Shown one piece after another: positions 1 through 31,325 of a stretch of 31,325 nucleotides of DNA (its first letter is position 1; the number at the start of each line of letters is the position of its first letter). Source of the DNA: a virus (taxonomy: Duplodnaviria > Caudoviricetes); IMG/VR virus record IMGVR_UViG_3300005805_000300, positions 1-31,325 of that record; one strand, 5' to 3'. Under the pieces are notes generated by a model that made no database searches, was not told the origin of the DNA, and saw only the letters and a program-made list of their open reading frames with translations. Made by a program: the position numbers and the translations under genes.

Positions 1-3000
1 AAATAGGTTTCGAAATAGTCGTCTGTGGCGCCGGTTTTTTCCTCGTCGGTAAGGTCTCCAAATTTCATCGTGTCCCTAAACCCACGAGAAGATTGATTTA
101 TTGTTTTTATTGATTCTTGTTGTTTTCGTTTGTCTGTGAAAAGATTTGCTCCAGCAAGGAATATATCTGTGAAGGCTTGCTTCATTTGCTGTGAAGATTT
201 AGCAGCAGCCAACCCCATTCCTTTTAGGGAATCCGTAAATTTAATAGTGGTATCGTAAAGATTGAAGCCCATTTCGTGTGCAAGTTTTTCGAGTTCCGGA
301 ATTGATTTTCCGGTCATCTTCGTTAATTCGTCAAGCCGTTTTGTCATAACTTTGTCTTGCATTTGATAGGCAGCTGTTTCTCCTTGCGTTAGACTGCCGG
401 TAGCTTGCAGTGCTGCCTGAACAGTGTTGTCGTTTTTGAACATCTCTTTGCGTTCTTTATTGCTGGTTTGAACACCTTGTTTTGTTTGCGCCGCTAAAAC
501 TTTTTCAAGGAGCGCCGCATTTGATAAGGCTCCTGCTGATCCAGCAGCATTTGTGCCTTCTACTATATTTCCTTCGACTATCCCTCTAAGTGTTGCTGAT
601 TTTTCCAAATATTGCCTACCCAATCCTTCGAATGAGCCCCTGTCTTTCATGGCCGATGTGTCGCCGCCAGCATCCTTAATTGCTTGAAGCCTGTCTTGAC
701 TTCTAAAGAATTTTTGAGCACCTTGTCCAACAACGCCTTTAAAAACTTCCGCCATATTATTTTCCATAGCTTTTTTTGCTTTTTTGGCTTCAGCCTTCCC
801 CTTATTGATCATGCCCTTAAAGGCGCCAGCAAGACCACCAATCACTGCACCAGCGAGTGCTCCGCCTGGTCCTAAGTAGGAGCCAAGGGCAGCTCCACCT
901 GCTGCTCCAGCTAGCAACCCAGACTTTGCGCTTGTTGCGTTGTATGCACCGCCCAAGCCCGCAACAGCGAGCCCTGCTCGTGCATCCATTTGTGCAACCA
1001 TTCCACCAAGCGCCATTGCTCCCTGCATCTCTTCCGGCACATACTGACTGGCAATTCCAAGCCCTAAGCTGGAACCCATTTTGCCACCCATGCTCTTACC
1101 GAATTTATTTGAAGCCGCACCGAATCTTGTGTTATTTCGATTTACTCGATTAAGGTCTCTAGCCCTATCAAGACGGGCTTTATTTTTGGCGATAAATCCA
1201 GTTTGCCCAGCACCTCCCTGACTTTTAGCTGTAGTCCTGTGTTTGTAGTCTTGTTTTATTCTCTCACGCTGATTGTCGACATCTATGTTCCCACCACTAC
1301 CAAACATTTGTTTGCCAGATGCATCAAGCATTGGGCTGCCATCTGGATTTTTGAGAGCCACCTGCATATTGGGATCGTAAGCTCCACCCATTGCGTAGGC
1401 CATCATGCCAGCCGCACCGCCATACATTTTTTGAGCCCTACTAGTTACTCTGTCTGTTATTGCTTGACTATAATCTTTGAATTGACTCCCTCTTACATCC
1501 CTCATTGGCATTGCTGCTGTTGCGTCTACCCGCGCAATATCCATAGCGGAAGCATTTAAGCGACTCTTATAATCTGGGAACGCCGTTCTTGCTTGTTCTG
1601 CTTTGAGCGCTCTGTTGTATGCCCTGTTTTCTGCATTCTGTATTCTTTGTTGTTTTCTTTCGTCGTACCAATTGGCGGCAGCGCCGTCCATGTACATATG
1701 TCTGCCAGTTCTTCTGGCTGAGCGCAAATTAAAATCAGACGTTGGGTCTAACTTCATCGCTGCCCCACCCCTAAAGGTGCTGAGAGCCCTTTGATCGTAG
1801 GCGTCAGCACTTGTATTCCCTTGATTAAAAGACGCTCTTCTGGCATCGTAGCCCATCGCTGTTACAGCTGCTGGATTGCTTGGCCCAAGATATCCACGTT
1901 GATCCATGAATGCTAAATTTCTTTGACTTGCATACATTGGAACAAATCCTGCACCCCTAGCACCGGAAGCAAGTCCTGGACCGGCTTGCTGACCTGTCCC
2001 TCCAGGACCAACTGGTCCGCGCGGTGCGGCATTTGGCCCTGCGGGATTTCCGTTTACGTTTACGTTTGCTGCAGTCACATTCATCTGTTGGGTGCTTTGT
2101 ATTGCTTTTGATTCCGGCGTAAAACGACCAGTCACTTTGCCCATCGCACGACCGGCAAGACTAAATGCGACAAGTGGAGCCAATGCTGACATTAGGCCCT
2201 TGCCCATTGTGCCGGTCATCATTTTTGTCATCATCCCAAAAACCTGAGAAAGCATGTTGACTATTTTTGTCAAAAATGGAAGAAGATCAAAAAACCCTTT
2301 TTTCAAATTCATAAATAATTCAGAGGCCTGCCTAATCATTCCACCAAGGGCTTCACCAAATGCACTTACCTGGACTTCATTTTTTTGTAGTAAGTCATTA
2401 AATAAAAACATATTGTCTGCGCCGGCACCAAGCGCTTGACCTATGGGTTTAAAAGCTTTTTCTATAACTTTTGCACCTTTTTCTAGTGGTGCCATATACT
2501 CAATAACGCGTTTCCAGCCTTGTTTAAACTCCGTCATCCAGTCGCCGACTCTGTCGAACATACCAATAGCTTTTGGCAAATATTCACGAATTGTTTTTAC
2601 CATCCAATTGCTTAACTTGTCGACTCCGTTAACAAATCCGTCAAGCAGTCCCTCAAATCCCATCGATTGACCTATGGTCGCAGATATTCTCTGAAGGTCT
2701 CTTCTAATTATTTTGAATATGTCTTCAAAAGCTCCTTTTGCTGGTTCAAGAAATTGATCACCAAAATCTGCAAACTCTGTTTTTAACCGAGTCATATATA
2801 CTTTGAGTTGACCAATTAAGGTATTGTTTACTGCAGCGAATTGTCCAGCAACACCACCCTTCTCTGCAAGAAGACCAGAAAACAACGCTTCCTTAAAACC
2901 TTCTTTTGTTTGCGTAAATTTTGAATCTTTGAGCGCTTTCTGCATTTCTGGACCAAGCTGACCTGCCGCCGCCTTGACATCAGCAAGACTTTTTTTCTGA

Positions 3001-3716
3001 TCATTAAGCGCAGCAACAACAGCAGCAACTTGCTCTATTGCTTTTTGTGGGTCCTGTCCGGCGGATCCGAAATCCATTAACGCTTTAATAGCTTTGCCGC
3101 TTGCGTTTATTTGTTGGACATTCATGGTTTTAGACATAACACCGTATGCTTTATTTAGACCATCAATTCCCAGAACAGCCAAGCCCGCATCAGCCTGTAG
3201 ATTACGCATGGCCATTCTCGTTTGATTCATCGCTGAACCGAATTCTTTTGCGCCCGATCCCCTGTAGGCGTACATTACTGCCTGTTGTTCCCTCATTGCC
3301 GCAGCGGCTGCTCCAAGCGCCATGGTTGCCGCCGCCGCACCACCAGCCAAGACCTGCATGGCTCCGGAATACGCCTTTACAAGGAACCTTCCAGCACCGA
3401 GGATAAGGTGCCAACCCAAAAATGCAGCGCTAAGTAAACCCATTTCCAGCAGAACACCCTTTATTGCTGTTGTTAAGAATTTGGTTATCCCTTTCCCGGC
3501 CATTTTTACTGCGGAGTCAATCACGTCAAAACTTTTTTTCATTTTTAAAGCGGCGGATTTAACGGCAATGACAGAACTTTGCATCATTGGCCCCATGCTG
3601 TTTTTGCCTATTTTTTTGGCGGCTCTATCGAGAGCCATCAATTCAAGGCGTGCTTTTACGAGGTCTTTTGTTTTGGCATCAAATACAATTTTTATTTTTA
3701 CAAGCTCGTCTGCCAT
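1..3716 (-). CDS. Tape measure protein (partial, runs off the window start; >1230 aa)
   Basis: Not in the ORF track. My translation from ATG at 3716 (MADELVKIKIVFDAKTKDLVKARLELMALDRAAKK...) stays open to the window edge. Ala/Gly/Met-rich, helical, with glycine-zipper segments (GVLAGAAGGAALGSYLGPGGALAGAVIGGLAG). Lies directly after the tube and chaperone genes. Confidence 0.9.
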   Translation of the reverse strand, partial: MADELVKIKIVFDAKTKDLVKARLELMALDRAAKKIGKNSMGPMMQSSVIAVKSAALKMKKSFDVIDSAVKMAGKGITKFLTTAIKGVLLEMGLLSAAFLGWHLILGAGRFLVKAYSGAMQVLAGGAAAATMALGAAAAAMREQQAVMYAYRGSGAKEFGSAMNQTRMAMRNLQADAGLAVLGIDGLNKAYGVMSKTMNVQQINASGKAIKALMDFGSAGQDPQKAIEQVAAVVAALNDQKKSLADVKAAAGQLGPEMQKALKDSKFTQTKEGFKEALFSGLLAEKGGVAGQFAAVNNTLIGQLKVYMTRLKTEFADFGDQFLEPAKGAFEDIFKIIRRDLQRISATIGQSMGFEGLLDGFVNGVDKLSNWMVKTIREYLPKAIGMFDRVGDWMTEFKQGWKRVIEYMAPLEKGAKVIEKAFKPIGQALGAGADNMFLFNDLLQKNEVQVSAFGEALGGMIRQASELFMNLKKGFFDLLPFLTKIVNMLSQVFGMMTKMMTGTMGKGLMSALAPLVAFSLAGRAMGKVTGRFTPESKAIQSTQQMNVTAANVNVNGNPAGPNAAPRGPVGPGGTGQQAGPGLASGARGAGFVPMYASQRNLAFMDQRGYLGPSNPAAVTAMGYDARRASFNQGNTSADAYDQRALSTFRGGAAMKLDPTSDFNLRSARRTGRHMYMDGAAANWYDERKQQRIQNAENRAYNRALKAEQARTAFPDYKSRLNASAMDIARVDATAAMPMRDVRGSQFKDYSQAITDRVTSRAQKMYGGAAGMMAYAMGGAYDPNMQVALKNPDGSPMLDASGKQMFGSGGNIDVDNQRERIKQDYKHRTTAKSQGGAGQTGFIAKNKARLDRARDLNRVNRNNTRFGAASNKFGKSMGGKMGSSLGLGIASQYVPEEMQGAMALGGMVAQMDARAGLAVAGLGGAYNATSAKSGLLAGAAGGAALGSYLGPGGALAGAVIGGLAGAFKGMINKGKAEAKKAKKAMENNMAEVFKGVVGQGAQKFFRSQDRLQAIKDAGGDTSAMKDRGSFEGLGRQYLEKSATLRGIVEGNIVEGTNAAGSAGALSNAALLEKVLAAQTKQGVQTSNKERKEMFKNDNTVQAALQATGSLTQGETAAYQMQDKVMTKRLDELTKMTGKSIPELEKLAHEMGFNLYDTTIKFTDSLKGMGLAAAKSSQQMKQAFTDIFLAGANLFTDKRKQQESIKTINQSSRGFRDTMKFGDLTDEEKTGATDDYFETY

Positions 3717-12364: not shown

Positions 12365-12366
12365 TT

Positions 12367-13922: not shown

Positions 13923-13951
13923 GGCACCCTTCGTGCCCCCTTGGGGCTACA

Positions 13952-14461
13952 TCACAACGAATCAACGTCGATGTTGTCAAACGTCCATTTGTTATCAAGA
14001 GTATCCCACAACGAACGGTCCACCGCTGTATCTTCTAGGTCAAATTCACGAAGCATTGAGCGATGCGTGGCGATGGCGCGCTTAAAAAAATCAACCTGCT
14101 CCCATCCATCGTTTTGCAGCTCCTGCCCTGTTGTGATCATTATCGCAACTTCATCAAGCCGTCTATCAACATGAAATTTAAATCTCTTAATTCTTGTCGC
14201 TTTTGTTTCGTAATAAGAACCAGCTTCCTTGGTGAGCCTTGTGCCTGCCCTCCCGAGGGCGCTATACCTTGCAAGGTCCGACTCGGAGTCTGTCTCTATG
14301 TCTTCAATTTGGCGTTTTAGGTTGTCCGAAAGAGCAAGTAATGCATCTTTCCATTTTTCCCAGTTTTCACGTTTCATTAATTCTTTTTTATGTAGGGGTG
14401 AAAGTTTATTTTTGACCTCTTCAGCCACCATGCGCGCAAAAGCATCTTCATTAAGCATCAT
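13952..14461 (-). CDS. Hypothetical helical protein
   Basis: 169 aa, SD AGGAG upstream, tightly packed in the operon. Confidence 0.75.
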   Translation of the reverse strand: MMLNEDAFARMVAEEVKNKLSPLHKKELMKRENWEKWKDALLALSDNLKRQIEDIETDSESDLARYSALGRAGTRLTKEAGSYYETKATRIKRFKFHVDRRLDEVAIMITTGQELQNDGWEQVDFFKRAIATHRSMLREFDLEDTAVDRSLWDTLDNKWTFDNIDVDSL

Positions 14462-14471
14462 TTATTTCTCC

Positions 14472-15954: not shown

Positions 15955-16001
15955 ACTTAATTGCTCCTTTTTCTAATGATTATTTTGATTGTTTGTTGTA
16001 G

Positions 16002-16496
16002 TTATTGTTTTGGCTTGCGAACAATAATGCTTGTTTTTAGGTCCCCAACTTCACAGTAGTTGTCGGGATTAATTCCTATTTTATTCAACTCTTTTACCCT
16101 CCAATAAGATGGAGCACAATAGATAAGCATGTCCATTGCGATTTCTTGTGGAGATTTGGTGACCTCTCCGGTGTCCATGTCGACGGCCATTTTGGTTAGT
16201 TTGTCAGCGACCGCAGAACCAATGTCCTTATGTTTCCATCCCTTGCGTTCATAGGATGAAGTCTTTTCAATTTTCACGCCGTTTGAAAGATTGACTTCCT
16301 GTTCGTCGCCAATAATTTTTCCCATTGAAAAAGAAAACGAATCATAAGCAGTCGTTAGGTCGCGCTTAAGAAAATTTAATTCAGCAAGCAATTCACATGC
16401 TTCGATTAAGTCGGGAGAAGAATCTGCGTACTCCATTAATTCAGAATCAAGCTCAGCTATGAGCGTTCTAATAAGGCCTAATTTTTCATTGTTCAT
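16002..16496 (-). CDS. Hypothetical protein
   Basis: 164-aa ORF co-oriented with neighbours; no family recognised. Confidence 0.7.
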   Translation of the reverse strand: MNNEKLGLIRTLIAELDSELMEYADSSPDLIEACELLAELNFLKRDLTTAYDSFSFSMGKIIGDEQEVNLSNGVKIEKTSSYERKGWKHKDIGSAVADKLTKMAVDMDTGEVTKSPQEIAMDMLIYCAPSYWRVKELNKIGINPDNYCEVGDLKTSIIVRKPKQ

Positions 16497-16533
16497 TTTA
16501 GTTAATATCCTTGTGGTAGGTGTTGGTCTATCT

Positions 16534-17847: not shown

Positions 17848-17887
17848 CAACTATACATTCCCTAATGTCGTATCTTCTTTTATAGGC

Positions 17888-18104: not shown

Positions 18105-20165
18105 ATGGCTTGGAATTCACGAGAAAATAAATCCCTGAGCCAATCACAGCAGAAATCTGTTCTGGGATATGGTGCGCCAGTTTCGTCAAACCCAAGTTAT
18201 GCCGATAAACCATACAGAGATTCATGGGACATAGAGCGTGCCTATCGAGAGGGAATGCAAAAAATCACCTGGGTTAACAGGTGTATTGATGCTATTGCCG
18301 GCAATCAAGCAAGACTTCCAATTATTCTAAGAAAAGAAAATTCCAGACATGGCGAAATAGTCCTCGGCAAAGAAGCAAAGCGTTCCACCTTGCTCGAACT
18401 CTTAAATACAAAAGCCAATATCGGAGAAAACGCATTCATTTTTCGATACAGGCTTTCTGCTCAGCTATTGCTTGGCACAAGAGGTGCGTTCATTGAAAAG
18501 ATTCGCGGAAGAGACGGCGGCATTATCGGTTTAAATCTCCTCCCCCCGCAGTCAACTGCCCCAATTCCTTGTCCTCGCAGATTTGTTTCTGGATATGAAG
18601 TTCAAATGCCGTATGGCCAAAAAGTAATAATGAAGCCTGAGGATGTTGTTTGGATAAGGAGACCGCACCCGCTCGACCCGTATCTGTCGCTTACACCACT
18701 AGAAGCATCTGGGGTGGCTATCGAGATTGAGAATTTAGCAAAACTATACAACCGCAACTACCTATTAAACGATGGAAGACCTGGTGGGCTTCTTGTTGTT
18801 AGAGGCGAAATTGACGAAGACGACAAAGAAGAATTACGCAATAGATTCAGGGGCAATTTAGGCAAAACTGGTCATACGACAGTTATCGCCGCAGACGAAG
18901 GCGTTGATTTTGTTGACACATCAGCAAACCCAAGAGATGCTGCTTATATTCAAATGCGACAAATCACAAAAGAAGAAATTCTTGCTGCATTTGGCGTACC
19001 GGAATCAGTAATTGGAAACGCATCTGGTAGAACATTTAGTAATTCATCAGAAGAAATTAGAGTATTTTGGGTTGAGACAATGTTGCCCCACCTTGAACCA
19101 ATAGCACGAGCAATCGATGAACTTGATGATAAATACTATCTCGACTTCGACACCAGCAATGTTCCAATCTTGCTCCTTTATAAGCAAGAGCGCGATAGGT
19201 ATCTTAAAGACGAACTGAGCCAAGGCCTGATTTCCGTCAACGAATACAGGACCGCAAGTGGAAGAAAAGAAGTTCAAGCAGACCTCGCTGACTCCCTATT
19301 GATGAATCCAAATCTGATTCCAATTGCAAACACAAAAAAGAAAATGGAAGAAAATACTGCTCAAATCCCCGGGGGAGCACCTGGCGCTCCTGGAATGCCA
19401 CCTATGCCCGGAATGCCTCCAGCTGCAGCCCCAGTTCCGCCTCTTGACCCAAACACCATGCAGGGAGCAATGGCGGAGGCGGTTTCGGAAACTACTGGCG
19501 ACATGGCTCAAACAACACTTCCACCAGAGGTCGCCGGTATGGCACCAGCAACCGGGGTCGCCCCAATCCCTTCAGGAATGGCCAGCGATTCATCTGGTGG
19601 TTTTAGATATAAATCAGAATTCAATGAAGAGTTTGATAAGTCCGAAATGGCGATGGAACGATGGTCGGAGATTTTGTCTAGAGGTATTGAGAGGGTTCTT
19701 GAGCGACAGCAACGTGTTGTTCTTGAGAAGACGAGCAGCAGTAAATCCAAAAAAGCTTTGATGTCTGGAACCCTTGATCTCGATTCTATTTTTTCCATAG
19801 AAACATGGAATAGGCAGATGGAGGACGACCTACGGCCGGTTCTCCTAGCGATAGTGAATGATTCCCATGAATTCCGAAAAGAATCATATTCCCAAAAAGG
19901 AATAAAATCTAAAGCCCTTTCTCCTGCCACAGTTAAAAATCATGTTGATTCTCAAATCGCGGAAATATTATTAATCAACTCTAATTTGCGCTCACAAATG
20001 GAAGAAATGATGATGAAATCATTCTCTCATGTGGGTGAAGAGCAAAGATTTTCTTCTTTTAGGGAAGAACTAGTTGGTATGTATGCAAATGTTCTTGCAA
20101 AAGACCAGTTGGAAATATCAGAATCAGAAGCGAAAAAAGCCTGGACATTTGGACAGTTCGCTTAG
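18105..20165 (+). CDS. Portal protein (HK97 family) with Pro-rich linker and C-terminal extension
   Basis: WVNRCIDAIAGNQARLP, LSLTPLEA, NDGRPGGLL, ITKEEILAAFGVPESVIG, GLISVNEYR. Confidence 0.93.
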   Translation: MAWNSRENKSLSQSQQKSVLGYGAPVSSNPSYADKPYRDSWDIERAYREGMQKITWVNRCIDAIAGNQARLPIILRKENSRHGEIVLGKEAKRSTLLELLNTKANIGENAFIFRYRLSAQLLLGTRGAFIEKIRGRDGGIIGLNLLPPQSTAPIPCPRRFVSGYEVQMPYGQKVIMKPEDVVWIRRPHPLDPYLSLTPLEASGVAIEIENLAKLYNRNYLLNDGRPGGLLVVRGEIDEDDKEELRNRFRGNLGKTGHTTVIAADEGVDFVDTSANPRDAAYIQMRQITKEEILAAFGVPESVIGNASGRTFSNSSEEIRVFWVETMLPHLEPIARAIDELDDKYYLDFDTSNVPILLLYKQERDRYLKDELSQGLISVNEYRTASGRKEVQADLADSLLMNPNLIPIANTKKKMEENTAQIPGGAPGAPGMPPMPGMPPAAAPVPPLDPNTMQGAMAEAVSETTGDMAQTTLPPEVAGMAPATGVAPIPSGMASDSSGGFRYKSEFNEEFDKSEMAMERWSEILSRGIERVLERQQRVVLEKTSSSKSKKALMSGTLDLDSIFSIETWNRQMEDDLRPVLLAIVNDSHEFRKESYSQKGIKSKALSPATVKNHVDSQIAEILLINSNLRSQMEEMMMKSFSHVGEEQRFSSFREELVGMYANVLAKDQLEISESEAKKAWTFGQFA

Positions 20166-20275
20166 TTTCACTAAACAATTTCTGTAAAATATTTGATTTG
20201 ATCGAATACTTGCACTCTGGGAGCAATTTCTCGTTTATTATCGACTAACAGCCGAAAAAAGTTGGTTTAAATACA

Positions 20276-23200
20276 ATGTCCACAGAAACATTTGAGTACA
20301 AATCCACGTCCATATCTGGCTCTCAACAAGTCAAGGGCGCAGTAAATTTGGATGAGGCTCAAGGTATTGTCGAATGTTTCGTCGCCGGTATTGGCAACAA
20401 AGACTCGGTTGGCGACGTTTGTGCGCCGGGAGCTTTCACAAAAAGCCTTCTTAGGCGCAAGCCTCGTGTGGTTTGGGGTCACAACTGGAATGACCCAATA
20501 GGTAAGGTCTTAGAAATTTATGAAGTTGGATCGACGGACCCACGCCTACCGCTAAAAATGAAGATGGCAGGAATTGGTGGTCTTTTCGCAAAAGTTCAAT
20601 TTAACTTAAATTCTGAAAAAGGCAAAGAAGCATTTGCTAATGTTGCCTTCTTTGGCGAAGAGCAAGAGTGGTCAATTGGCTATAAAACACTTAGAGCTCA
20701 ATTTGACCAGAAATCTCAAGCAAATATTCTTTATGAGGTTGAGTTGTACGAGGTAAGCCCTGTGCTTCACGGAGCAAACCAGCTCACCGGAACAATTTCG
20801 GTAAAAGCCGATGACTCCGCGTATGGTGGCGCTGTTGCATTGATGCCCGAAAGTGAGGACGATAACGGATTTGAGGAAATGGAAAAAGAATTGAGCAGAC
20901 TGCTCAACGCTAAGGTTTCCATAAATGCAATAGAGGGAGACAGCGTAATATTTACCCGACAGGAAGCTGTCGGCGCCAAGAAATATCGATGTGGATTCAT
21001 GAAGAACCACGGAAGATATATGTTCGGAATACCAGAAATGATTTCCACCCCGCAGAGTATGCGACCTATGTCTCCGATGCCGGTTGTATCAGGAAGACCG
21101 ATGCCGCCAAATGAGCCGCAGAGAATTGTAAGACCACAACAAATGCCCTCAATTCCTGTTGCCGTAAAACCAAGCAGCGACGGCGTAATGATGATTCCTC
21201 TTCCAGCGATTCGCTACGATTCTTCATCTAAACCACAAATAGATAAAAATAATCTCGATCAAGAAGAATCAGATTTGCGCGATGCGCTTTTAAAAATCGT
21301 AAAACGTCATGGAAAACTAGATGAAGATGGAGACGGAATCTGGGCGGGCTACTATCCACCAGAAAAAAATCCAGTCGCGTCAATCGGAGTTAAGTGCGCC
21401 AATTGTGTTTTCTATAAAGGCGGTTCTAGTTGTAAAATTCTTGCGCTCCCCGTGCACCCGGAAGGGAAATGCAGATTTGCGGTAATCCCAAACGGCGTTG
21501 TTGTTGGCAGCAGCTCCAAGGAGCTCGAAGACCTCGCAAGCGAAGCAGAGGACTCGATTATCGAAACACTTGAAATGAAATATCCAGGAGAATTTATTCT
21601 TGGTGTACTGAGAAACACTGTCGGTAGAAGAAAAAAGAGAAGACAGAAGTACAAGAATCTTTCCGAGTTCGGCGACGCAGATGACACCGGTGAAAAGGCC
21701 TACCTAATACCGGTAGAGCCAGATTTTGCGTTCAGTGTAAAGACAGCGCTGGATCCTATATTTGATTATCACAGAGCAGAAACATTTGTTGACAAAGAGG
21801 GCATAGTGATATCTTCCGGAGTGACGGAAGAATTGATTGATGCACTCGATACCGCCTTCCACAACATAAAAAAAAAATTCCAAGAACATAATGTAGAAGT
21901 CAAAGCGCTTGGTTACAGAATCGGTCGCTCACTTGCTTCAAGGGCGATAGATAGACCAAATATCGGCGGGAAAAAACGTGGTCGTGGATTTGGTATGCCG
22001 GAAGGCGACCTCAACCCAATGACCAGAGTTGACAAAAACAGAGATGGAACACTGTTTGACAACATACCAGGATGGGAACAACCAGACCCGACACCGGATG
22101 GACCTGGTTCAATCAATAACGCAAAACTTTCTTCTACTCAAAAAAGAGACATTGACAAAATTTCTGGAGAAGCTAATAAGATAAAACCACAAGACAGCGA
22201 AATAATAAAAAGTCGCAAACCAAAGTACGACGTCAACGAACTGGACGACATTCTTGGGGAAGATAAAAAGAAGCCATCTAAAAAACCTGTAGCAAAAGCA
22301 ACTCCGATTAAAAAAGAAAAAGCCAAACGCGGCGAGTACGACTTCTCTAAGGGTCCTAAAAAAGATAAGCCAATCAAAACCCCATCTCTCGCATCAGGTG
22401 AAGAAAAAGACAAGAAACCAAAGACTCCTTCGCGCAAGAAACCAAAGATGACCGATGAGGAAATCTACAAAAAAAGAATAACGACGAAGGCATCACTTCA
22501 GGAGCTAGCCGATGAGCTCGGCATCTCAAGAATGGAAGTGAGAAAGCGCGAACAGCGCCACATGCGCAAGTTGCGCAATGATAAACAAAGTCCTTCTCTT
22601 TCGTCTGGCGAAAAGAATGAGTGGGCGACGGCGCGTGGTTACGAACCAGACAGATTTGATCTCCGCGAGGCCGTAGAACAAATAGGTAGAGGGAACATAA
22701 TGGCCATTTCTGGTGGTCGTGTTGAAAGAAGAGGGAATGAAATGATTCTCCCTTCGACAAAAGACCAACAAGTCGTAATCGGATACAACGCAGTTCCTGA
22801 CCTTTACTACGTTCGAGCGGAACAAAAAGTTAATACTGGCAAAAACAAGGGTAAGAATAAAATTCTTGCTCAATGGGACGACGTCTATGCCGACGAGTTG
22901 GGTGAACTTGCGTATCAAGCAAGCCTAAAGCCGGCATTGTTAAACAGCGAAAACAAAGAGTATTGGAAGCTTGGAAAAGGCAATCAATTCACTGACAAAC
23001 TTATTGATAGGAGAAGCGGAAAACTCGTAGATGACGAAGTTTCAGAAAAACCTTCTTCTACTCCCTCAAAAGAAGAAACCCCATCTCTTTCTTCTGGTGG
23101 GAGAGGACGTGATTACTACAAATACGACATAGATACGAGCGACAACGGGAACGGCCTGCTTGATCAAATTCATGACGCTCTTGAAGAAAACCCACTACTC

Positions 23201-26200
23201 AAAGATGACATTACGGCCGACATAGCGGACATGCTTGGTGGAGACGGAATAGTTGAAGCAAATGGATTCGATACACGAAAAGCATTCAATCTCGTAACCG
23301 GAAGTGATGATGATTTCCAGGGCTACTTAGACGTCGTTGACGATGCAATGGATGCACTTAAAAATGGTTCACTTGCAAAGCATAAAGCGACGGTTCGTGA
23401 CGCCAATACAACTCTTGATTCGCTCAAATCCGGAAGCGATGAAGCCGGAAAACTTGAAGCATTGAGAGACAGGTCGTATGAGTGGATTGGTGATATTAAT
23501 AAATATTCACGAATATCCACAATTAAAGATAAAAAGAACATCGAAGCAAATGATGTTGCAGCACGGATGGTTTCAAAAGAGCAAGACGCTCTCTGGAATG
23601 CTCGTTCCGCTATAACAGAAAAATACATAGAAGATGTCATCTCTGCAAAGAAAGAATCAAAGCGAAGGGTTCCAATTGATGATGTGGATACAGAAAAAAT
23701 TCCAGATTACGAATTAGCTCTTTCTTCTGGAAGCGTATTTAAAAACAAGCCAGCATCAAAAACATTAGATAGCAAATCGGATGGATTATCTCTCTCGTCT
23801 GGGGAAAATAAAAAAATCTATGACGAAATAGGTAAATCAATTCTCGAGGCACTTATCGAGATGCAAAAAAATCCACAATCCAGATACTGGGATGTTCCGT
23901 GGAGAACCCCTACTCTTTATGCAAAAAACCCAACAAAGGGTCGCTTATATCAGGGCATGAATGCATTGCTTCTCGCAAACTCTCATAGACAAAATCAATA
24001 CAGAGGAAATTTTTGGGCTGGAAAATCTCAGTGGGCAAAATTTGGCGGAACTGTAGAAGATGGAAAGAGCGGAGTAAATATTCTCGTTCCAAGAGAGACC
24101 CCAACTGGCAAAACTTTCATTGTACAAACTGTCTACAACCTGGACGACATTGAAGGCTTGCCAGATTCTTACGTCAAAAAATTATTAGATGTGGGCAAAG
24201 AGCGTCTTGACCCAGCAACCAAAATCAAAGACGCAGAGTCTGTCGTTGACGAAATTAAACCAGAGATTAGGTTCGGTGGAGATTCTGCGTATTACTCAAT
24301 CACGAATGATCACATTCAGATGCCCCCATACGAAATGTTTAAATCCCCTGAGCAATATTACTCAACACTTTTGCACGAGCTAACGCACTGGACTGGCGGA
24401 AAATCCCGTCTTGCAAGAAAGCAAGTAGGTCTACAAAAAGACGAAGAAGCATATTCATTTGAGGAATTAATTGCCGAAATGGGTTCGTCATTCCTTCTTG
24501 CAGCACTTGGTATCACGCCAGAAGTAAGACAAGACCACGTTGTTTATATTGAAAGTTGGATTTCAAATCTCACAAAGGACCCAAGTGCATTTATTAGGGC
24601 AATGAACCAAGCACAACAAGCTGCTGATTGGGTTATGGACAGATCACCCACATTGAGAAGACTTGCCGGCGTACCAGATAGCGAAAGAAAAGGCAAACCT
24701 GATGCAACCAAGGAAGTTGCGGAAGCCGCAACCGAATCTGTTGATGCAGTAAAAGATTCGACTCCATCTCTATCTTCTGGTGCACAAGTCGGTGTACGGA
24801 AAGTAAAAGAGCTTCAATACTTTGGCGACGAAGATCAATATGGCTCTGGAGTTGTTGATAGAGATTCACGGGGACGTATTCTTGATGCGGCTGGCGCTCT
24901 TTCTCTTTCTAGCGGCGCGAAACCGATTAAAAGTGTAGATGGGAAAATAACAGTACCAAGACCTAGCGACAATGTTCCATACAGAGAAAAATACAAATTT
25001 CTCGCTAATGAATTTGAACCAACAGAGCAACAAAAAGCATCAATGGATGTACTGCAACACATGCTCAAAGAAAAGATAAATGGCATCATCGCTATTGGTG
25101 CTGGGGCTGGTTCGGGCAAAACAACAAACTTAAAGCAAAATGCGCGTGCCGTTGCCGCAATTTTCCCTGGCAAACAAATTTACTATACCGTATTCAATAG
25201 GGGAAATGCTAAAGACGGTAACCGAGTAATGCCAAGGAATACCGGCGTAGCAACAAGCAATCAAATTGCATACTGGTCGCTAGTTCTTGGAACCGGTGAC
25301 AAATTTTACGGAACAGGCACTGCAAAAAAAATACAACTTGGAGTCGGACCGAGGGAAAAAGTATATCTACGGGGTGCAAAGAAAAATACGGTAAAAGAAT
25401 ATACAGATTTTGAAGGGAACAAGCTTCAATTTACAGGTGTAATACCCGGATATACAGATTTGGGTTATACGAGCTACGATTCGGAACCAAATATCATAGA
25501 AAGACTTGAGAAGCTTGGGCTTCTTAGTGACGCCGACGAGCTTCTCGGCGCTGATTATTCTCTTGCAGAAATGTTGAAGAAGGCTCTTATGAGATTTGCA
25601 GAGAGCGAAGACCCCAAATTGTCCGCGAAACATTTTTTATTGCGCGATGTGGAAATGATCTCGGCCTTACTGGATGGCAAACCAGTACCTACTGAAGAAA
25701 CGATACCTAAAGAAGTTGTAGAAATCGCTCAAAAGTTATGGGATGAGACGGTAGACCCGAACAGCAATGTTTTAATTCCTCAGGAATATCAAATAAAAAT
25801 GTGGGCCCTCACCAAGCCAGACCTAAGAACAGATAAGGGACTTATTGGACATAGACCAAACGAAACAATTTTTGACAGAATAAAACTTGGTACGGTCGAA
25901 GATTTAGATTCCGGGAAAATCAAAATTGGAAACATAATTGAATTTACCGTGCCAGAAACCGGCGAAAAAGTTGCCGCAGTTATCCGCAAACTTAATCCGC
26001 CATCACAAAAAGAAACAAAAAAAGGCGAGCTGACCGGAAAAAGACAAGTAACTGGTTCTGTTTCTATTGTTTCAGTAACTGCCAACAATCCGCTAGAAGT
26101 GTTTATGTTTGATGAAGCTCAAGACGTGAACCCAGTTATGGCAAAAGTGCTAGCTGATAACGCTGCGAATTTACCAATCATAATGGTCGGTGATTCGCGT

Positions 26201-29200
26201 CAAGCCATTTACGGATTTAGAGGGGCCATGGACGCCCTAGATAAAGCAAATGCGACATTTAGGCTCCCCTTAACACGTTCATTTAGGTATGGAAGGCTAC
26301 CGGCATACCTAGCGAATGTTGTGTTGATGCAAGGAAATATTGATGACTTAAATTTCCATAGGGAAAATGAGACTTTAGACAGACACACATTTCATCACGT
26401 AGTTGGCGAAGCTCAAAATGTTGTAATCAATGCACTGAAAATTACTGGTCCAGATGGTAAAAAACTACTCCCCAAGGAAGAACTCGACAAAAAACTCAAA
26501 TTTATAGAAGTGAAATACAAACTCAAGGGACGCGCAGTCAGCTTTGATGGGAAAAGTGAAAAAGAAATAAAAGAACTTGTTGACAAGCTATATGAAGAGC
26601 ACGTTCCTAAAGCGAATGGTCAAATCGTGGAAAACATGACCAATCCTCAAGCCGTCTTAACATCAACAAATGCTGGCGTAATGGAAGAGGCTCTCAATGT
26701 AGTTGAAGGGGGAATACTTAAGCATCAAATTGCATATCTCGACCTTCTTGGTATTGAGGACATAACAGACGAAATAGAATTAGCTAATAGATTGAAAAAA
26801 ATTTCTGAAATATACACATTGGACGGACTTGAAATAAATCTTCTTGATATCGCGGCAAACGACGGAAAAGATGCGATGCTAAAAACCATCAATGAATTAA
26901 GAGAGGAGCACGCTCCTGGTGGTGCTGATGGAAAAATTCCAGCTATAGGAATCCCGGCTGACACTCACGAAAAACTCTATGACTTCTACAATCAACTAGA
27001 TTGGATTATGGGGGATCTTGATAACAAATTTGGCGTTCAGGGGCGGCCAAAAGCATCGAAATTATTGAAAGATGTCTGGAGATTCGACAAAAAGAAAAAT
27101 AGATATCCAACAAAAGAGGAAATGGTCAGGAAAATAGAGAGAATGGTTCAAGGCGGATCACAGGAGCTTAAAACCTGGTATAGGCTTGCGTACCCTCCAA
27201 TCGGAAAAGGCATACCAAGAGGGGCAAGATTCTTTAAAGATTTACTAAGACCAAACGGACAGGTATATAAAGACCTGAACGGGAATGAACAAAGATATCA
27301 GGGACTAAGGCCAATGCGCGAGGGGATTGAGCTCCCCAACATGGAGTCCGGTAAGGACCACATTACGGCAGATCTTATAAAGGAAACAGCGAAAGAACCA
27401 TTAGGCGAAAGCAAGTCTGGAAGACGCAGAAAAATTTCATGGATAATACCCAAGAAAGATGAAGGTGATTCGTCTGGTGAGGTATTCGTAAAACTAGAAC
27501 TTGACGAAAATGGCAAGTCAACCGGAGGCGTGATTATTGCGGGGAATGGCGCTCATGGTGGAAAGTATAAGTTTAGAAAATGGAATAACAAGAAAAAAGA
27601 ATGGGACCCGATACAAAGCGGGCAGCCCGACAAGAAGGGGTTCGATTACTACGAAGACTTAGCAAAGGTTGCGAAAAAACTGAAAGCTGAATACCCAGAC
27701 GCGGTAATTGAATTTAAGCAGGGCCTCGTAAAACAGGACGGCAAAGCTTTAACATTCCCCCCAGACACCCCCGATGATTTTAAGCCAAAACTAAATCCGA
27801 AAACAGGAAATCCTGACTCCTCCGTCGAAAGAGCATCCTTGCCTGGGTGGGTCGTGAGGGGGAGGAACCCGGAAGAGACCGCACTTATTGCCAACGAATT
27901 TGGTAACAGGGTCAGAAAATTAGCGGCCGAAGGAAATACCGACGTTGACGTTATGACTGTTCATATTGCTAAAGGTAGAGAATGGAAGAGAGTAAGGCTT
28001 TCTGACGACTTCCGAGACCCAGAATCCCTGGTCCCAACTCTCCCACCGGAAGTTTTAGAAAACCTTAAACCAAAAGAGAGACTCCGGGTTCTCAGAGAAC
28101 TCGAGATGATGAAACGAGAAGAGCACAACAAGGTTTATATAGCAATAACTAGAGCACAGGAGCAAATTGATCTTGGTGTTGCTATAACAAAATATTACTT
28201 CTTAGATGAGATACCCAATACTGCTTTAACTGCTGATATCCAAGAGATCAGGAAGAGGATAGAAGATCTAGATAAAGAAATAAGCAAACTCCAAAAAAAA
28301 CCCAACAGCGATACAGATCCAGCAATCAAAAAAGAAATAAATAGACTCAAAAAAGAAAAAATCGAACAGAATAAAATCCTTAATACGTCTCGAGATATGC
28401 TTCAAGCTCAAAAAGTTACTGCAGCTAAAGCAAAAATTGTCGAGAACCCAGACGGCATATACGACGACCTTCAGGCCCCAGAAGGCTTCATTACCCCTTA
28501 TTTGGCCGATACGGAAGAGGCCAGAGCAAAACGCAAAAAGCGTCAAGAAGAATTAGATCAGTCGGTTAAGAGGTACTTTGAGTCACAGCGTCAAAAAGAA
28601 AAACAACAAGCAACCCCGGATGACGATGATGAAGCGATGGTCGAAGACGACTCCGGCGGGCTTGATACTGGTGAGCCAAACTTTGTAGACATATCTGGAC
28701 CAGAAGATGACAGTGGAATAAGTAGCGATGATCAAGACGACGACGGAGACGTTCAATCGCTATCTCTTTCGTCTGGAGCTAAAAAGAAAACAAACAGAAG
28801 AAATAGACGCCTCCCCTACAGTCAACAAGATAGACAGAATCTCGCTGATGGAAATATTATCCGTTCGAAAAAAATTCCTAAAAAACGCAAACCAGGACCA
28901 TCAACTCAAGAATTTGATGATTTAGCGCTTGCTTCCGGAGCGAAAACACCAGAGGGGAGATACGCAAGAAGACTGCGAGCAATAAGCCTCTCTAGCGGAA
29001 GTGATGATATTGGTGCAGGAGCAAAAACTCGACAAATTAACGGCAAGAGATTTGCTGCAACAATTTCTAGGCCTCGAGATCTTGCCGCCATAAGAGTGGA
29101 TGGTGACCCAAACAAAAATGACGAAGTGAAAAACAAACTCGAATATGCAATGAAATTTTGGCGTGGAGTGCGTGAACGCGGCATCGCCCTGGATCCGGAC

Positions 29201-30652
29201 GATGTCTCAGCCGAAAGAAAAGACGTTGAAATCAAAAATTCAATCTCTTCTATTTCAAAAAGAATGTCCACGAGACCAAAAGTTAAAATTGGTAAAGTTT
29301 CATCTAATCAAATAAAAGATGACGTCAACCCTGATGAGTGGTTCGTTCCTGTTTCTAAATTAAAAGACTCGATAAGAATACCAACAGAATTTTCCAATAT
29401 TCCGGCCGACCCCGACTCTCCGGACGGTAGAAAAATTGCTCGCTGGACGCAGACACGCCCACTTTCCAATGACGAACTAGGGAAAATGCTTGCCCTAAGC
29501 AAGACAGACATAAAAAAATTATCTGATGATGATTCTGGCATCACTCACGACTCTGTTCGATTTCTGTTGGCTGAAATAGGTAAACAGAAAGGATTTGAAG
29601 CTTGGAGACTATTTGCTCCGACCTCTTTGAAAGAAGAAGGCGTACAAGAAATGTCGCCCGCAGATAAATTTGTCGCAAATCTAGAAAGAGCCAACATGCG
29701 TGACAGATTCATAATCGAAGCATTTGGCAAAGATGCCTTCCCCTACTGGATAGATAAGGAAGAAAATACTGTTATTGGTCAGAAAGAATATTCAACCCTT
29801 GGCGAAGTCAGTGAAATGGGCAAATTTAGGTCCACTGGAATATTCAGCAAAAAACGCGGAGCATCAGAATTCGGCTCAACCGCCGAAGAAATGCTCCTTG
29901 AGGAAGCGGTGTTTGGCGGCGATGATGGTCCGGGCGACTTCGTGAAGGAAGCAATTATAAATTCCGTATCAGCACCATCAGGTAAAACATCTAGAGAACA
30001 ATTTGATATCAGCCAACTTCTTCAGGCATTAAAAATAAACGAATCAGAAGACTGGTATAAGGAGTTGCGTAAAAGAATGATGAAGGCATTTTCCACAGAC
30101 GATGTTGGTCTTACATCCAAGGAAGTGGCCCGACAGTGGGAGGCCGGTGGGGTTCCTACGACATACATTAATGAAATGATCAGAACAGGCTTGATTCCTG
30201 ATGCTAAATCGGTTTGGAAAAAAGATGGTGTCGGGGAAAAACTAGACAGCGAATTGGCTGCTTCAAAGCACTCTGTCTACGAAGCCCTTTTTGAGTTTAC
30301 GCAAGCAAAACACGCCGCAGATAAAGCCAAAAACACTAGACGAAACAGAGATTACATTCTTGGTTCTACCGATTTTACTGTCTCGCATAAAGGGGTGGCC
30401 GCCAGGAAGGGGGCAACATTCTCAAAGAAAACCGGAGATGAAAGAAGATTTAGCCAAAGCGAACTACAGGATGTTGTAAATCGTTTTAATGAAATATTTG
30501 GAACCAATTACAAAATAGACGACATTTTCAGTGCAGAGCAATTACGCAACGCAACAAAAAGGCTCCGCGAAGAAGGTAAAACCCTATACGGCGAAGAACC
30601 TTTAGAGCTGGGTCAACGAGTTGTTCTTAAGAAAGATAAGAATAATAAATAA
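20276..30652 (+). CDS. 3458-aa polyvalent protein: HK97-type prohead protease + HiPIP-like Cys motif + sigma4-like HTH + ArdC-N/MPTase + UvrD-like SF1 helicase + unknown domains
   Basis: Protease: KDSVGDVCAPGAF, VWGHNW, WSIGY, LYEVSPVLHGAN. ArdC: NPTKGRLYQGMNALLL, LLHELTHWTG, YSFEELIAEMGS. Helicase: AGAGSGKTT, DEAQD, VGDSRQAIYGFRGA, LTRSFRYG, TVHIAKGREW, VYIAITRA. Confidence 0.92.
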   Translation: MSTETFEYKSTSISGSQQVKGAVNLDEAQGIVECFVAGIGNKDSVGDVCAPGAFTKSLLRRKPRVVWGHNWNDPIGKVLEIYEVGSTDPRLPLKMKMAGIGGLFAKVQFNLNSEKGKEAFANVAFFGEEQEWSIGYKTLRAQFDQKSQANILYEVELYEVSPVLHGANQLTGTISVKADDSAYGGAVALMPESEDDNGFEEMEKELSRLLNAKVSINAIEGDSVIFTRQEAVGAKKYRCGFMKNHGRYMFGIPEMISTPQSMRPMSPMPVVSGRPMPPNEPQRIVRPQQMPSIPVAVKPSSDGVMMIPLPAIRYDSSSKPQIDKNNLDQEESDLRDALLKIVKRHGKLDEDGDGIWAGYYPPEKNPVASIGVKCANCVFYKGGSSCKILALPVHPEGKCRFAVIPNGVVVGSSSKELEDLASEAEDSIIETLEMKYPGEFILGVLRNTVGRRKKRRQKYKNLSEFGDADDTGEKAYLIPVEPDFAFSVKTALDPIFDYHRAETFVDKEGIVISSGVTEELIDALDTAFHNIKKKFQEHNVEVKALGYRIGRSLASRAIDRPNIGGKKRGRGFGMPEGDLNPMTRVDKNRDGTLFDNIPGWEQPDPTPDGPGSINNAKLSSTQKRDIDKISGEANKIKPQDSEIIKSRKPKYDVNELDDILGEDKKKPSKKPVAKATPIKKEKAKRGEYDFSKGPKKDKPIKTPSLASGEEKDKKPKTPSRKKPKMTDEEIYKKRITTKASLQELADELGISRMEVRKREQRHMRKLRNDKQSPSLSSGEKNEWATARGYEPDRFDLREAVEQIGRGNIMAISGGRVERRGNEMILPSTKDQQVVIGYNAVPDLYYVRAEQKVNTGKNKGKNKILAQWDDVYADELGELAYQASLKPALLNSENKEYWKLGKGNQFTDKLIDRRSGKLVDDEVSEKPSSTPSKEETPSLSSGGRGRDYYKYDIDTSDNGNGLLDQIHDALEENPLLKDDITADIADMLGGDGIVEANGFDTRKAFNLVTGSDDDFQGYLDVVDDAMDALKNGSLAKHKATVRDANTTLDSLKSGSDEAGKLEALRDRSYEWIGDINKYSRISTIKDKKNIEANDVAARMVSKEQDALWNARSAITEKYIEDVISAKKESKRRVPIDDVDTEKIPDYELALSSGSVFKNKPASKTLDSKSDGLSLSSGENKKIYDEIGKSILEALIEMQKNPQSRYWDVPWRTPTLYAKNPTKGRLYQGMNALLLANSHRQNQYRGNFWAGKSQWAKFGGTVEDGKSGVNILVPRETPTGKTFIVQTVYNLDDIEGLPDSYVKKLLDVGKERLDPATKIKDAESVVDEIKPEIRFGGDSAYYSITNDHIQMPPYEMFKSPEQYYSTLLHELTHWTGGKSRLARKQVGLQKDEEAYSFEELIAEMGSSFLLAALGITPEVRQDHVVYIESWISNLTKDPSAFIRAMNQAQQAADWVMDRSPTLRRLAGVPDSERKGKPDATKEVAEAATESVDAVKDSTPSLSSGAQVGVRKVKELQYFGDEDQYGSGVVDRDSRGRILDAAGALSLSSGAKPIKSVDGKITVPRPSDNVPYREKYKFLANEFEPTEQQKASMDVLQHMLKEKINGIIAIGAGAGSGKTTNLKQNARAVAAIFPGKQIYYTVFNRGNAKDGNRVMPRNTGVATSNQIAYWSLVLGTGDKFYGTGTAKKIQLGVGPREKVYLRGAKKNTVKEYTDFEGNKLQFTGVIPGYTDLGYTSYDSEPNIIERLEKLGLLSDADELLGADYSLAEMLKKALMRFAESEDPKLSAKHFLLRDVEMISALLDGKPVPTEETIPKEVVEIAQKLWDETVDPNSNVLIPQEYQIKMWALTKPDLRTDKGLIGHRPNETIFDRIKLGTVEDLDSGKIKIGNIIEFTVPETGEKVAAVIRKLNPPSQKETKKGELTGKRQVTGSVSIVSVTANNPLEVFMFDEAQDVNPVMAKVLADNAANLPIIMVGDSRQAIYGFRGAMDALDKANATFRLPLTRSFRYGRLPAYLANVVLMQGNIDDLNFHRENETLDRHTFHHVVGEAQNVVINALKITGPDGKKLLPKEELDKKLKFIEVKYKLKGRAVSFDGKSEKEIKELVDKLYEEHVPKANGQIVENMTNPQAVLTSTNAGVMEEALNVVEGGILKHQIAYLDLLGIEDITDEIELANRLKKISEIYTLDGLEINLLDIAANDGKDAMLKTINELREEHAPGGADGKIPAIGIPADTHEKLYDFYNQLDWIMGDLDNKFGVQGRPKASKLLKDVWRFDKKKNRYPTKEEMVRKIERMVQGGSQELKTWYRLAYPPIGKGIPRGARFFKDLLRPNGQVYKDLNGNEQRYQGLRPMREGIELPNMESGKDHITADLIKETAKEPLGESKSGRRRKISWIIPKKDEGDSSGEVFVKLELDENGKSTGGVIIAGNGAHGGKYKFRKWNNKKKEWDPIQSGQPDKKGFDYYEDLAKVAKKLKAEYPDAVIEFKQGLVKQDGKALTFPPDTPDDFKPKLNPKTGNPDSSVERASLPGWVVRGRNPEETALIANEFGNRVRKLAAEGNTDVDVMTVHIAKGREWKRVRLSDDFRDPESLVPTLPPEVLENLKPKERLRVLRELEMMKREEHNKVYIAITRAQEQIDLGVAITKYYFLDEIPNTALTADIQEIRKRIEDLDKEISKLQKKPNSDTDPAIKKEINRLKKEKIEQNKILNTSRDMLQAQKVTAAKAKIVENPDGIYDDLQAPEGFITPYLADTEEARAKRKKRQEELDQSVKRYFESQRQKEKQQATPDDDDEAMVEDDSGGLDTGEPNFVDISGPEDDSGISSDDQDDDGDVQSLSLSSGAKKKTNRRNRRLPYSQQDRQNLADGNIIRSKKIPKKRKPGPSTQEFDDLALASGAKTPEGRYARRLRAISLSSGSDDIGAGAKTRQINGKRFAATISRPRDLAAIRVDGDPNKNDEVKNKLEYAMKFWRGVRERGIALDPDDVSAERKDVEIKNSISSISKRMSTRPKVKIGKVSSNQIKDDVNPDEWFVPVSKLKDSIRIPTEFSNIPADPDSPDGRKIARWTQTRPLSNDELGKMLALSKTDIKKLSDDDSGITHDSVRFLLAEIGKQKGFEAWRLFAPTSLKEEGVQEMSPADKFVANLERANMRDRFIIEAFGKDAFPYWIDKEENTVIGQKEYSTLGEVSEMGKFRSTGIFSKKRGASEFGSTAEEMLLEEAVFGGDDGPGDFVKEAIINSVSAPSGKTSREQFDISQLLQALKINESEDWYKELRKRMMKAFSTDDVGLTSKEVARQWEAGGVPTTYINEMIRTGLIPDAKSVWKKDGVGEKLDSELAASKHSVYEALFEFTQAKHAADKAKNTRRNRDYILGSTDFTVSHKGVAARKGATFSKKTGDERRFSQSELQDVVNRFNEIFGTNYKIDDIFSAEQLRNATKRLREEGKTLYGEEPLELGQRVVLKKDKNNK
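22382..28999 (+). repeat. Ten dispersed peptide-level repeats [PLI][SA]L[SA]SG
   Basis: Copies start at 22382, 22592, 23081, 23714, 23786, 24764, 24899, 28760, 28922 and 28982, with varied synonymous codons. Confidence 0.9.
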
Positions 30653-30789
30653 AAATCAGCCAGGCCATATTTTGACTAAATTGTTTAATACTGCTAATCC
30701 ATTACAAAGCCGCGTGGTAGGTTATAATTTAGACCATTAACAAATGGTGGTTGGCCTATGGCCATCCGCCTGCAGATCCCAGGAGTCAT

Positions 30790-31325
30790 ATGAGCTACGA
30801 CGAAAAGGCCAATGTAAGCATCGACGCTGATGGAAACGTGCTTAAGTGCGCCAAGGGTGCCTCTGCCGCTGAGTGCGGATACGTAAAGGGTGCTGATTTA
30901 TGTGCCAAGTGCGGAGCGATACCGCTACAAATGAAAATGGTCCCCGTTGAAGAAATGGTTGACGAGGATATGGTCGACAGCGAAGAGGGTGACGACAAGA
31001 TGCATGGCACTTGGCGGCACTCGAAATCAAAAAAGAAAAAGAAAATGATTTCAATACCGGAAGATGCGGATAATTCCGAAGAAGAAGAGGAAGAAGTTTT
31101 GGTTGGGGTTACGAAACCGGACTTGAAGAAACCGGAAGAAAAAGCCATGGACGCTGAAATGGGCGAAATGATGGCGATGGACGATGAAGATGAAGATGAA
31201 GATGAAGATGAAGATGAAGACATGGATGACGATGACGATGTCATGGATGACGATGAAGATGATGATTCGGAAGAAAAAGCGTACGGCATGGACGACGAAG
31301 ATGAAGAAAAAATGTATGACATGTC
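30790..31325 (+). CDS. Partial Cys-motif, highly acidic protein (head module; scaffold or internal protein candidate)
   Basis: Not in the ORF track. SD AGGAG(30781), ATG 30790: MSYDEKANVSIDADGNVLKCAKGASAAECGYVKGADLCAKCGAIPLQMK..., then D/E/M tracts; open to the window end. Confidence 0.85.
   Translation, partial: MSYDEKANVSIDADGNVLKCAKGASAAECGYVKGADLCAKCGAIPLQMKMVPVEEMVDEDMVDSEEGDDKMHGTWRHSKSKKKKKMISIPEDADNSEEEEEEVLVGVTKPDLKKPEEKAMDAEMGEMMAMDDEDEDEDEDEDEDMDDDDDVMDDDEDDDSEEKAYGMDDEDEEKMYDM
31183..31218 (+). repeat. (GATGAA)6 coding microsatellite (Asp-Glu repeat)
   Basis: Six exact tandem hexamers. Confidence 0.9.

Follow-up and report, generated by a model that had tools for sequence, protein, structure and literature searches.

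The DNA stretch analysed here, called the window throughout, comprises the 31,325 nucleotides (positions 1 to 31,325) of IMG/VR virus record IMGVR_UViG_3300005805_000300 and belongs to an uncultured freshwater phage that, judging from its gene content, has a contractile tail. An open reading frame (ORF) at 20276-30652 on the + strand, situated between the portal gene and an acidic head-region gene, encodes a protein of 3458 amino acids (aa), here called giant 1, which starts with a prohead maturation protease and continues as a string of cargo modules punctuated by ten copies of a short peptide, the tag. On the strength of its sequence giant 1 is a polyvalent phage protein and would work like a polyprotein. 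The tag is probably cleaved in some way. We favour tentatively, and short of calling it probable, a processing in two steps by two proteases of a module string loaded into the prohead, the tag being cut by the second protease, a packaged zincin.

The earlier note on this DNA had reported ten motifs of the type 'SLSSG' in the protein. Their coordinates proved exact and account for every L[SA]SG that it contains:

22382..22399, + strand, tag 1, PSLASG
22592..22609, + strand, tag 2, PSLSSG
23081..23098, + strand, tag 3, PSLSSG
23714..23731, + strand, tag 4, LALSSG
23786..23803, + strand, tag 5, LSLSSG
24764..24781, + strand, tag 6, PSLSSG
24899..24916, + strand, tag 7, LSLSSG
28760..28777, + strand, tag 8, LSLSSG
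28922..28939, + strand, tag 9, LALASG
28982..28999, + strand, tag 10, ISLSSG

By chance, at most two copies of L[SA]SG were obtained in 5000 global and 5000 local (30-aa) shuffles, and LSSG is present eight times compared to a maximum of four for any 4-mer in 300 local shuffles. The motif was also said to be conserved as a peptide while its codons vary, and this holds. Indeed, the eight LSSG copies of the window are eight different 12-mers in which Ser is written with both TCN and AGC, and homologues keep the tag with varying codons: among 90 LSSG copies there are 69 different 12-mers and Ser is encoded by AGY in 10 and 31 of the 90, while TCT is found at about twice its expected frequency at both Ser positions. 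Such codon variety with a mild TCT excess places the constraint mainly on the peptide. The tag could otherwise be the translated scar of DNA recombination during module shuffling, devoid of function at the protein level, and the TCT excess, the Rad52-like annealing protein encoded by the phage and the doublet tags with short spacers, which resemble deletion remnants, would suit such an origin. However, the number of different 12-mers and the AGY codons largely refute a scar as the sole explanation, and the presumed tape measure (see below) keeps the tag though no module exchange is seen there. We thus hold the scar to be very improbable, while micro-homology at the tags may assist shuffling.

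The form 'SLSSG' is correct for the lineage of the window but not for the family, whose core is [LFM]-x-S. Over 1306 family sites the residue before Leu is R in 31%, K in 20%, G in 19%, S in 15% and A in 5%, and since it varies lineage by lineage, 'SL' is the dialect of the window's lineage. The linkers that carry the tags had been described as low-complexity; they are polar (hydrophobic fraction between the 0 and 41st percentile) but not uniformly low in complexity (entropy percentile 0-93).

Between the tags, and upstream of the first one, the following units were delimited:

20276..30652, + strand, giant 1, protease-led cargo polyprotein of 3458 aa
20348..20806, + strand, S78/HK97-type prohead protease domain (aa 25-177), His69 at 20480 and Ser133 at 20672
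21905..22141, + strand, putative head-anchor segment, common to the N-terminus of giant 3 in relatives
22382..22591, + strand, helix-turn-helix (HTH) module of 70 aa, sigma70 region 4-like, its cluster found in 67 proteins
22592..23080, + strand, unassigned module of 163 aa, near clade only
23081..23713, + strand, unassigned module of 211 aa, near clade only
23786..24763, + strand, ArdC-N and metallopeptidase (MPTase) module, HELTH at 24374
24899..28759, + strand, superfamily 1 (SF1, UvrD-like) helicase module of 1287 aa with large inserts
following tag 8 (28760..28777), + strand, conserved basic mini-module of 54 aa, its cluster found in 72 proteins
28982..30649, + strand, conserved C-terminal module with no assigned family, in 104 of 117 proteins

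Pfam places S78 at aa 31-174 (47.3 bits for a cut-off of 21, E 3e-12), a sigma70-r4-like HTH at 737-768, ArdC-N at 1179-1273, MPTase-PolyVal at 1319-1443 and UvrD pieces at 1938-1984 and 2555-2630; the TIGR01543 score of the protease domain, 53.5 bits, is just under the cut-off of 59. In all 120 aligned heads the catalytic His69 and Ser133 are conserved without exception. Furthermore, the gene context is that of the HK97 family, with the portal directly upstream and, in relatives, the capsid gene further downstream within the head cluster to which the protease gene belongs. The proposal that the motifs bracket the domains stands as far as they lie at module boundaries, but four of the intervals are merely spacers of 20-54 aa and not domains. 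As claimed, the helicase module is free of the motif, none being present between aa 1544 and 2831. The ArdC-MPTase module has the extent of an entire stand-alone ArdC protein, its aa 34-292 aligning to residues 27-293 of a free protein of 305 aa (E 2e-38). The 163-aa module has no Pfam, NCBIfam or Atlas match and an Atlas search with the 211-aa module was blank. For the C-terminal module no usable PDB-sequence or Atlas match was obtained; its AlphaFold2 model (mean predicted local distance difference test, pLDDT, of 76.7, below 50 for the first 22 residues) predicts a fold from about 25 aa past its tag, for which Foldseek returned no match and the best VIA hit (Z 4.8) covers a small helical part only. 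These blanks are no evidence of a new fold in any of the three modules.

The anchor segment matches aa 24-108 of giant 3 in the relative G001 (phmmer E 1.6e-27) and holds a DxDxDG-like word of the calcium-binding type. The anchors of giant 1 and giant 3 are seemingly more alike within one genome than across genomes (window 21905-22141; N-termini of giant 3 in G001 and G002), which suggests concerted evolution.

The behaviour of the tag in homologues was next considered. With aa 1-260 as query and a size range of 1901-6052 aa, 274 proteins were retrieved, of which the best 120, query included, were analysed. Three to 21 copies of [LFM][SA]SG are carried by 118 of the 120, and the remaining two use G-L-x-S. 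Cutting 117 of these proteins at the tag gave 1085 segments that fall into 136 clusters. Whole units recur in varying order, namely ArdC-MPTase (99 proteins), the helicase (89) and the C-terminal module (104): the order is ArdC-helicase-C in the window, C-ArdC-helicase in P0060, and ArdC comes last in P0081. Near relatives differ from the window by entire tag-bounded insertions, and an exonuclease module has been transferred whole between giant 3 and giant 1. Independently of the segment clustering, no tag falls inside the 99 ArdC spans (104 expected if uniform), and two fall inside 55 helicase spans from Walker-A to motif VI (127 expected), one in a span that covers two helicases and the other within a second helicase copy. 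Hence the check proposed in the earlier note, that the motif be sought at domain boundaries in homologues, came out in its favour, as modules are gained, lost and reordered whole at the tags; its view of a cargo polyprotein of the head region is likewise supported, a repeated conserved site being found between independently folding units, as in processed polyproteins. By eye, further cargo includes what we take to be a kinase-like module in P0118 and P0119 (aa ~730-950) and, presumably, an ADP-ribosyltransferase-like region in giant 2 of G001 (aa ~1050-1190). About 600 matching stretches are present in IMG/VR. Among cultured phages, the nearest proteases are 40-42% identical and unfused, and the repeated tag was not seen in the corresponding regions of Gordonia phage Chidiebere and Streptomyces phage Gilgamesh.

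The tag is not confined to giant 1. In five near-complete relatives of 151-170 kb (G001-G005) it concentrates in giant 1, in giant 2 two genes downstream and in giant 3 further on, at 2.0-2.7 per 1000 aa in the giants compared to 0.13-0.42 elsewhere, the short giant 3 of G005 being counted with the latter. In the window it also lies in a Gly/Pro linker of the tape measure (1962..1973, - strand, GPG-LASG-AR, aa 582), and the tape measures of relatives likewise carry it in such a linker. A second tag near the tape measure N-terminus (aa ~36 in G002-G005, aa 42 in G007) is lost in the window and G001. Distant clades use other dialects (GLAST, GFSSS/GFASRT, GMASR, LRSSG, FASTS), and Ser is invariant across all of them. 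A profile built on giant 1 only ranks the tape measure, giant 2 or giant 3 of its own genome first or second of 11 in 25 of 28 cases, with the dialect patterns for choosing the training sites picked by eye; giant 2 of G003 and giant 3 of G004 rank third, and the remaining miss is taken up below. Most likely, the tag is read in trans by a single factor in each phage, or in each host. In G006-G009 some genes of the protease-capsid interval bear long tails punctuated by their own dialect tag, such as a 2585-aa ORF of G009 with six tags.

The tag could instead stay uncut and serve as a site of Ser modification (phosphorylation or glycosylation), or as a handle at which a chaperone or the ejection channel docks or begins unfolding. 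The invariance of Ser in all dialects agrees with this, as do the glycosyltransferases encoded by G001 and the precedent of N4 virion RNA polymerase, ArdC and TraC1, which are delivered uncut (Iyer 2017, PMC5512222). However, module junctions usually have a single tag each while domains have essentially none, the tag-bounded units equal stand-alone proteins, and an uncut chain of 3458 aa would leave proteins with different targets tethered to each other. We therefore consider an uncut tag unlikely, and return to its cleavage.

Besides the tag, giant 1 contains a second conserved signal centred on Lys:

20288..20305, + strand, Lys site K9 (FEYK|S), where a cut by S78 is predicted, Lys in all 120 aligned heads
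20795..20809, + strand, Lys site K177 (ISVK|A) immediately behind the protease domain, where self-release is predicted, Lys in all 120 aligned heads
21890..21907, + strand, Lys site K543 (VEVK|A) before the anchor, Lys in 100% of 120

Lys9, Lys177 and Lys543 are thus invariant and located at the edges of protease and anchor. The pattern hydrophobic-[EQ]-x-K-[SA] was counted 39 times in the 27,564 residues of the head set (head genes plus the front part of the giants), twice in 32,596 cargo residues and 19 times in 176,480 others; local shuffles gave a mean of 9.3 and a maximum of 20 (300 shuffles) compared to the 39 observed. The capsid protein of relatives is HK97-like (E 1e-50 to HK97 gp5), and HK97 capsid protein is cut at K103/S104 (PMC10275583). 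A K|D conserved in 9/9 genomes lies within ~6 residues of the HK97 mature start and is a candidate cut site, while a tag of the genome's own dialect is absent from the capsid protein in 9/9. Given the absence of the tag from the capsid protein, and the conserved Lys there and at the head-proximal domain edges, two codes are likely. The interval from the protease gene to the capsid gene (G001 124001-144000, L118; orthologues in G002-G009) contains six or seven conserved unannotated genes, several of which begin with or contain Lys sites.

Just before Lys543 the gene contains a homopolymer:

21868..21877, + strand, A10 run (ATA AAA AAA AAA), both shifted frames stopping within 6 codons

Near-identical overlapping contigs from two independent freshwater runs tile the giant 1 gene, none of them spanning it whole, and bridge the A10 run unchanged. 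Only 6 of the 141 KKK triplets of five genomes are written entirely with AAA, and the A10 junction accounts for 5 of them. By slippage, the run probably yields a short, protease-only form of ~540 aa. The protease ORF ends after 282 aa in L007, 548 aa in L030 and 536 aa in L071; the stops in L030 and L071 lie near the A-run junction and could be homopolymer length variants or assembly errors.

Which enzyme would read the tag was then examined. The earlier note had looked to the fused maturation protease or the fused MPTase, and neither suggestion fared well. PF18818 is not on record in 20 of the 120 listed proteins, and 18 of these 20, which lack the ArdC-MPTase module, keep 5-12 tags; the fused module was consequently rejected as a necessary reader, as far as action in cis is concerned. 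With respect to the S78 protease, cutting of the tag inside the prohead in addition to the Lys sites has several points in its favour. It is present in every member, though by construction of the searches, and it correlates with dialect as well as any region does. Hydrophobic-x-small tags also resemble assemblin sites. Moreover, cleavage of numerous head cargo proteins at a short motif has been described for prohead proteases, as with SPN3US gp245, which acts after A-X-E with Ser preferred at P1' (PMC10052503). Yet the capsid protein, the canonical S78 substrate, is without the tag and keeps its Lys site in 9/9, the Lys motif and the tag occupy separate territories, and the dialect changes (RLASG, xLRSS, GLAS) between genomes whose S78 stays 91-96% identical. 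The tape measure bears the tag as well; in T4 tails join heads only after packaging (PMC10052503), so that by analogy the tape measure should be beyond the reach of S78. We judge S78 unlikely to be the reader, and turn again to a second protease.

The best candidate is a putative zincin domain of giant 2, seen only in relatives since it would lie past the window end. This HExxH domain is located in the constant part in every inspected giant-2 ORF long enough to include it, and HExxHxxQ is invariant in 24/24 sequences that are 14-89% identical to the first, these rows having been selected partly for having HExxH. No Pfam or PDB-sequence match was obtained. The model (pLDDT 79.5) has a topology compatible with that of a zincin, for which an HExxH helix, a three-strand sheet and a downstream Glu helix are expected. 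In VIA it resembles sequence-specific zincins, the lethal-factor catalytic domain coming out best (Z 10.3, root-mean-square deviation 4.7, 195 aligned) and Pro-Pro endopeptidases next (Z 5.7-6.1). A hydrophobic residue at P1' is a common requirement of zincins, and a cut before Leu, Phe or Met would agree with it.

Several observations weigh against this reading. The tape measure of G002 ranks 11 with the giant-1 profile. A looser tag pattern matches the capsid protein in 2/9 and the portal in 5/10 genomes; conversely, the strict Lys pattern, itself found by inspection, misses the capsid protein in G001-G005, whose Lys sites agree only with a looser pattern that was likewise selected by looking at them. 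Distant clades lack the A10 run, which is hence a clade feature. For the zincin model Foldseek gave nothing at E<=0.001, and a Z of 10 on a mostly helical model is moderate support. In a Mantel test on 21 genomes the correlation with dialect similarity (rho) was 0.55 for S78, 0.56 for giant-1 aa 180-480, 0.48 for the zincin and 0.33-0.42 for other giant-2 regions; all regions thus track ancestry, the zincin is not favoured and no reader is singled out. The residues right after Ser133 differ between LSSG-type and most other clades, so that S78 specificity could have shifted. Finally, there are alternative candidates, namely a further HExxH domain in giant 3 (5/5) and an HslV/proteasome-beta-like gene in 5/5 near-complete and 3/5 partial relatives:

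G001 34154-34774 (L082:14154-14774), - strand, HslV/proteasome-beta-like gene starting MTT, weak matches (E 1e-7)

This gene leads to a further possibility, that a soluble protease cuts the tag, either the phage HslV/proteasome-beta-like enzyme or, in the cell just infected, a protease of the host, dialects then tracking hosts. A soluble enzyme would be able to reach tape measure and cargo alike, and a preference for Leu, Phe or Met at P1 is typical of HslV/proteasome-type enzymes. However, these enzymes usually degrade processively, cutting in the producer cell would part the cargo from its anchor before packaging, and the hosts are resolved no further than Actinomycetota. A soluble reader therefore seems to us quite unlikely.

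According to the two-protease reading, which we retain, the A10 run would make most of the product a ~540-aa protease, with few full-length copies carrying cargo. S78 would cut after Lys in the capsid protein, in other head proteins and in its own front (K9, K177, K543), as extrapolated from HK97, and after these cuts anchor plus cargo would stay inside the head. A second, sequence-specific protease, for which the giant-2 zincin is the best candidate, would act on the [LFM]-x-S tag of every giant and of the tape measure and thereby free ArdC, the helicase and the unassigned modules. Its cuts would probably be made no earlier than ejection, the stage that would first bring head cargo and tape measure together. 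Extended to its full form, this becomes an actinophage two-code programme: S78 at Lys, and a co-packaged zinc protease reading a lineage-specific code in at least three giants and the tape measure, which would unpack dozens of swappable anti-defence modules on entry, with ribosomal or polymerase slippage setting the cargo dose. As a whole this programme is doubtful.

Shuffled effector modules freed by a site-specific protease at repeated linker sites are a feature of MARTX toxins and RNA-virus polyproteins, and retroviruses have short and long forms under frameshift control. In contrast to the toxins and RNA viruses, giant 1 belongs to a tailed DNA phage with presumed capsid delivery, and no cysteine-protease domain was detected in it. 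The HK97 protease is not known to have such fused cargo. The likeness to HK97 gp4/gp5 lies in the portal, the S78 protease and a capsid protein of HK97 type whose mature start has a Lys site close by (PMC10275583). SPN3US and T4 share with giant 1 a short motif in many head proteins and cargo ejected into the host, and use one protease and one motif at 14 mapped sites in 9 head proteins (PMC10052503); the present case differs by the fused cargo string with up to 21 tags, the second motif on the capsid protein and the tail protein with a cargo tag.

The closest relatives in concept are the polyvalent proteins of Iyer 2017, large proteins that mix unrelated domains including ArdC-N and MPTase, are encoded among head genes and were proposed to be packaged, injected and proteolytically split, the MPTase being the proposed processing enzyme (PMC5512222). 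Giant 1 likewise combines disparate domains (S78, HTH, ArdC-N, MPTase, SF1 helicase) at a location among virion genes, and contains the hub domains PF18818 (E 3e-39) and PF08401 (E 2.5e-13). It departs from that description in three respects. The assemblin-like peptidase, where present, is described as C-terminal, whereas the S78 domain of giant 1 is N-terminal (aa 31-174); the MPTase, there the processing enzyme, is optional cargo in the giant 1 family; and the family has an explicit, multi-gene, drifting tag, whereas the relevant parts of Iyer 2017 give no junction motif and its main text does not use the word 'linker'. Fusion of enzymes to MuF, portal or capsid-processing peptidase has already been proposed as a loading route (Iyer 2022, PMC9503650), including a Nudix fused to a capsid-processing serine peptidase; as described there, these are single effectors without a repeated tag or multi-gene code. 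P1 DarB is reported as a large cargo targeted to the capsid (PMC9024508). No paper on the tag or the family was found in the open-access literature; the supplementary architecture files of Iyer 2017 could list such proteins.

Splitting of polyvalent phage proteins into working parts had been proposed before, no site having been assigned to it. A candidate site, candidate enzymes and natural specificity variants are now explicit, which makes the idea testable without phage culture. Used as a ruler, the tag divides 117 proteins into 136 module clusters, most of which have no known family and all of which are candidates for early-acting or anti-defence proteins, and the phage group carrying tagged giants is widespread in aquatic settings. 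If true, the reading would mean sequence-programmed loading and release of many proteins from one capsid.

The neighbours of giant 1 in the window are as follows:

18105..20165, + strand, portal protein with one Lys site (FRYK|S) and without tag
30751..31323, + strand, start only of the acidic head-region gene, kept in 5/5 relatives, where giant 2 comes next
3..3716, - strand, presumed tape measure, a long ORF cut by the window end, after tail chaperone, tube and sheath genes (phrog_5088, 5102, 23)

The tape measure owes its name to its position, since the ORF has no family match of its own. Terminase and tail genes (3-17850) are on the minus strand and diverge from the portal and head genes (18105-31325) over a 254-bp gap.

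With regard to the host, the two WhiB genes of G001 (170 kb; 126 of 195 ORFs scanned) point to Actinomycetota, WhiB serving as an actinophage marker (PMC10914622). Host assignment from GTDB genomes was set aside, as it gave four metagenome-assembled genome (MAG) contigs that are assigned to three unrelated phyla and are probably mis-binned. At a protease identity of 76-80%, relatives (L242-L244) are present in MAG contigs labelled Phycisphaerae and Gammaproteobacteria, which are probably mis-binned phage contigs. In G001, a dense cluster at 63000-83300 comprises ~15 genes of the 2-oxoglutarate-Fe(II) oxygenase type, one gene for a fatty acid desaturase and one cyclopropane synthase-like gene. 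In the window, a trio of ParB-like, phosphoadenosine phosphosulfate (PAPS)-reductase-like and ParB-like genes (9856-12364, - strand) lies beside RuvC, HNH, exonuclease and Rad52-like genes and is possibly a DNA-modification module.

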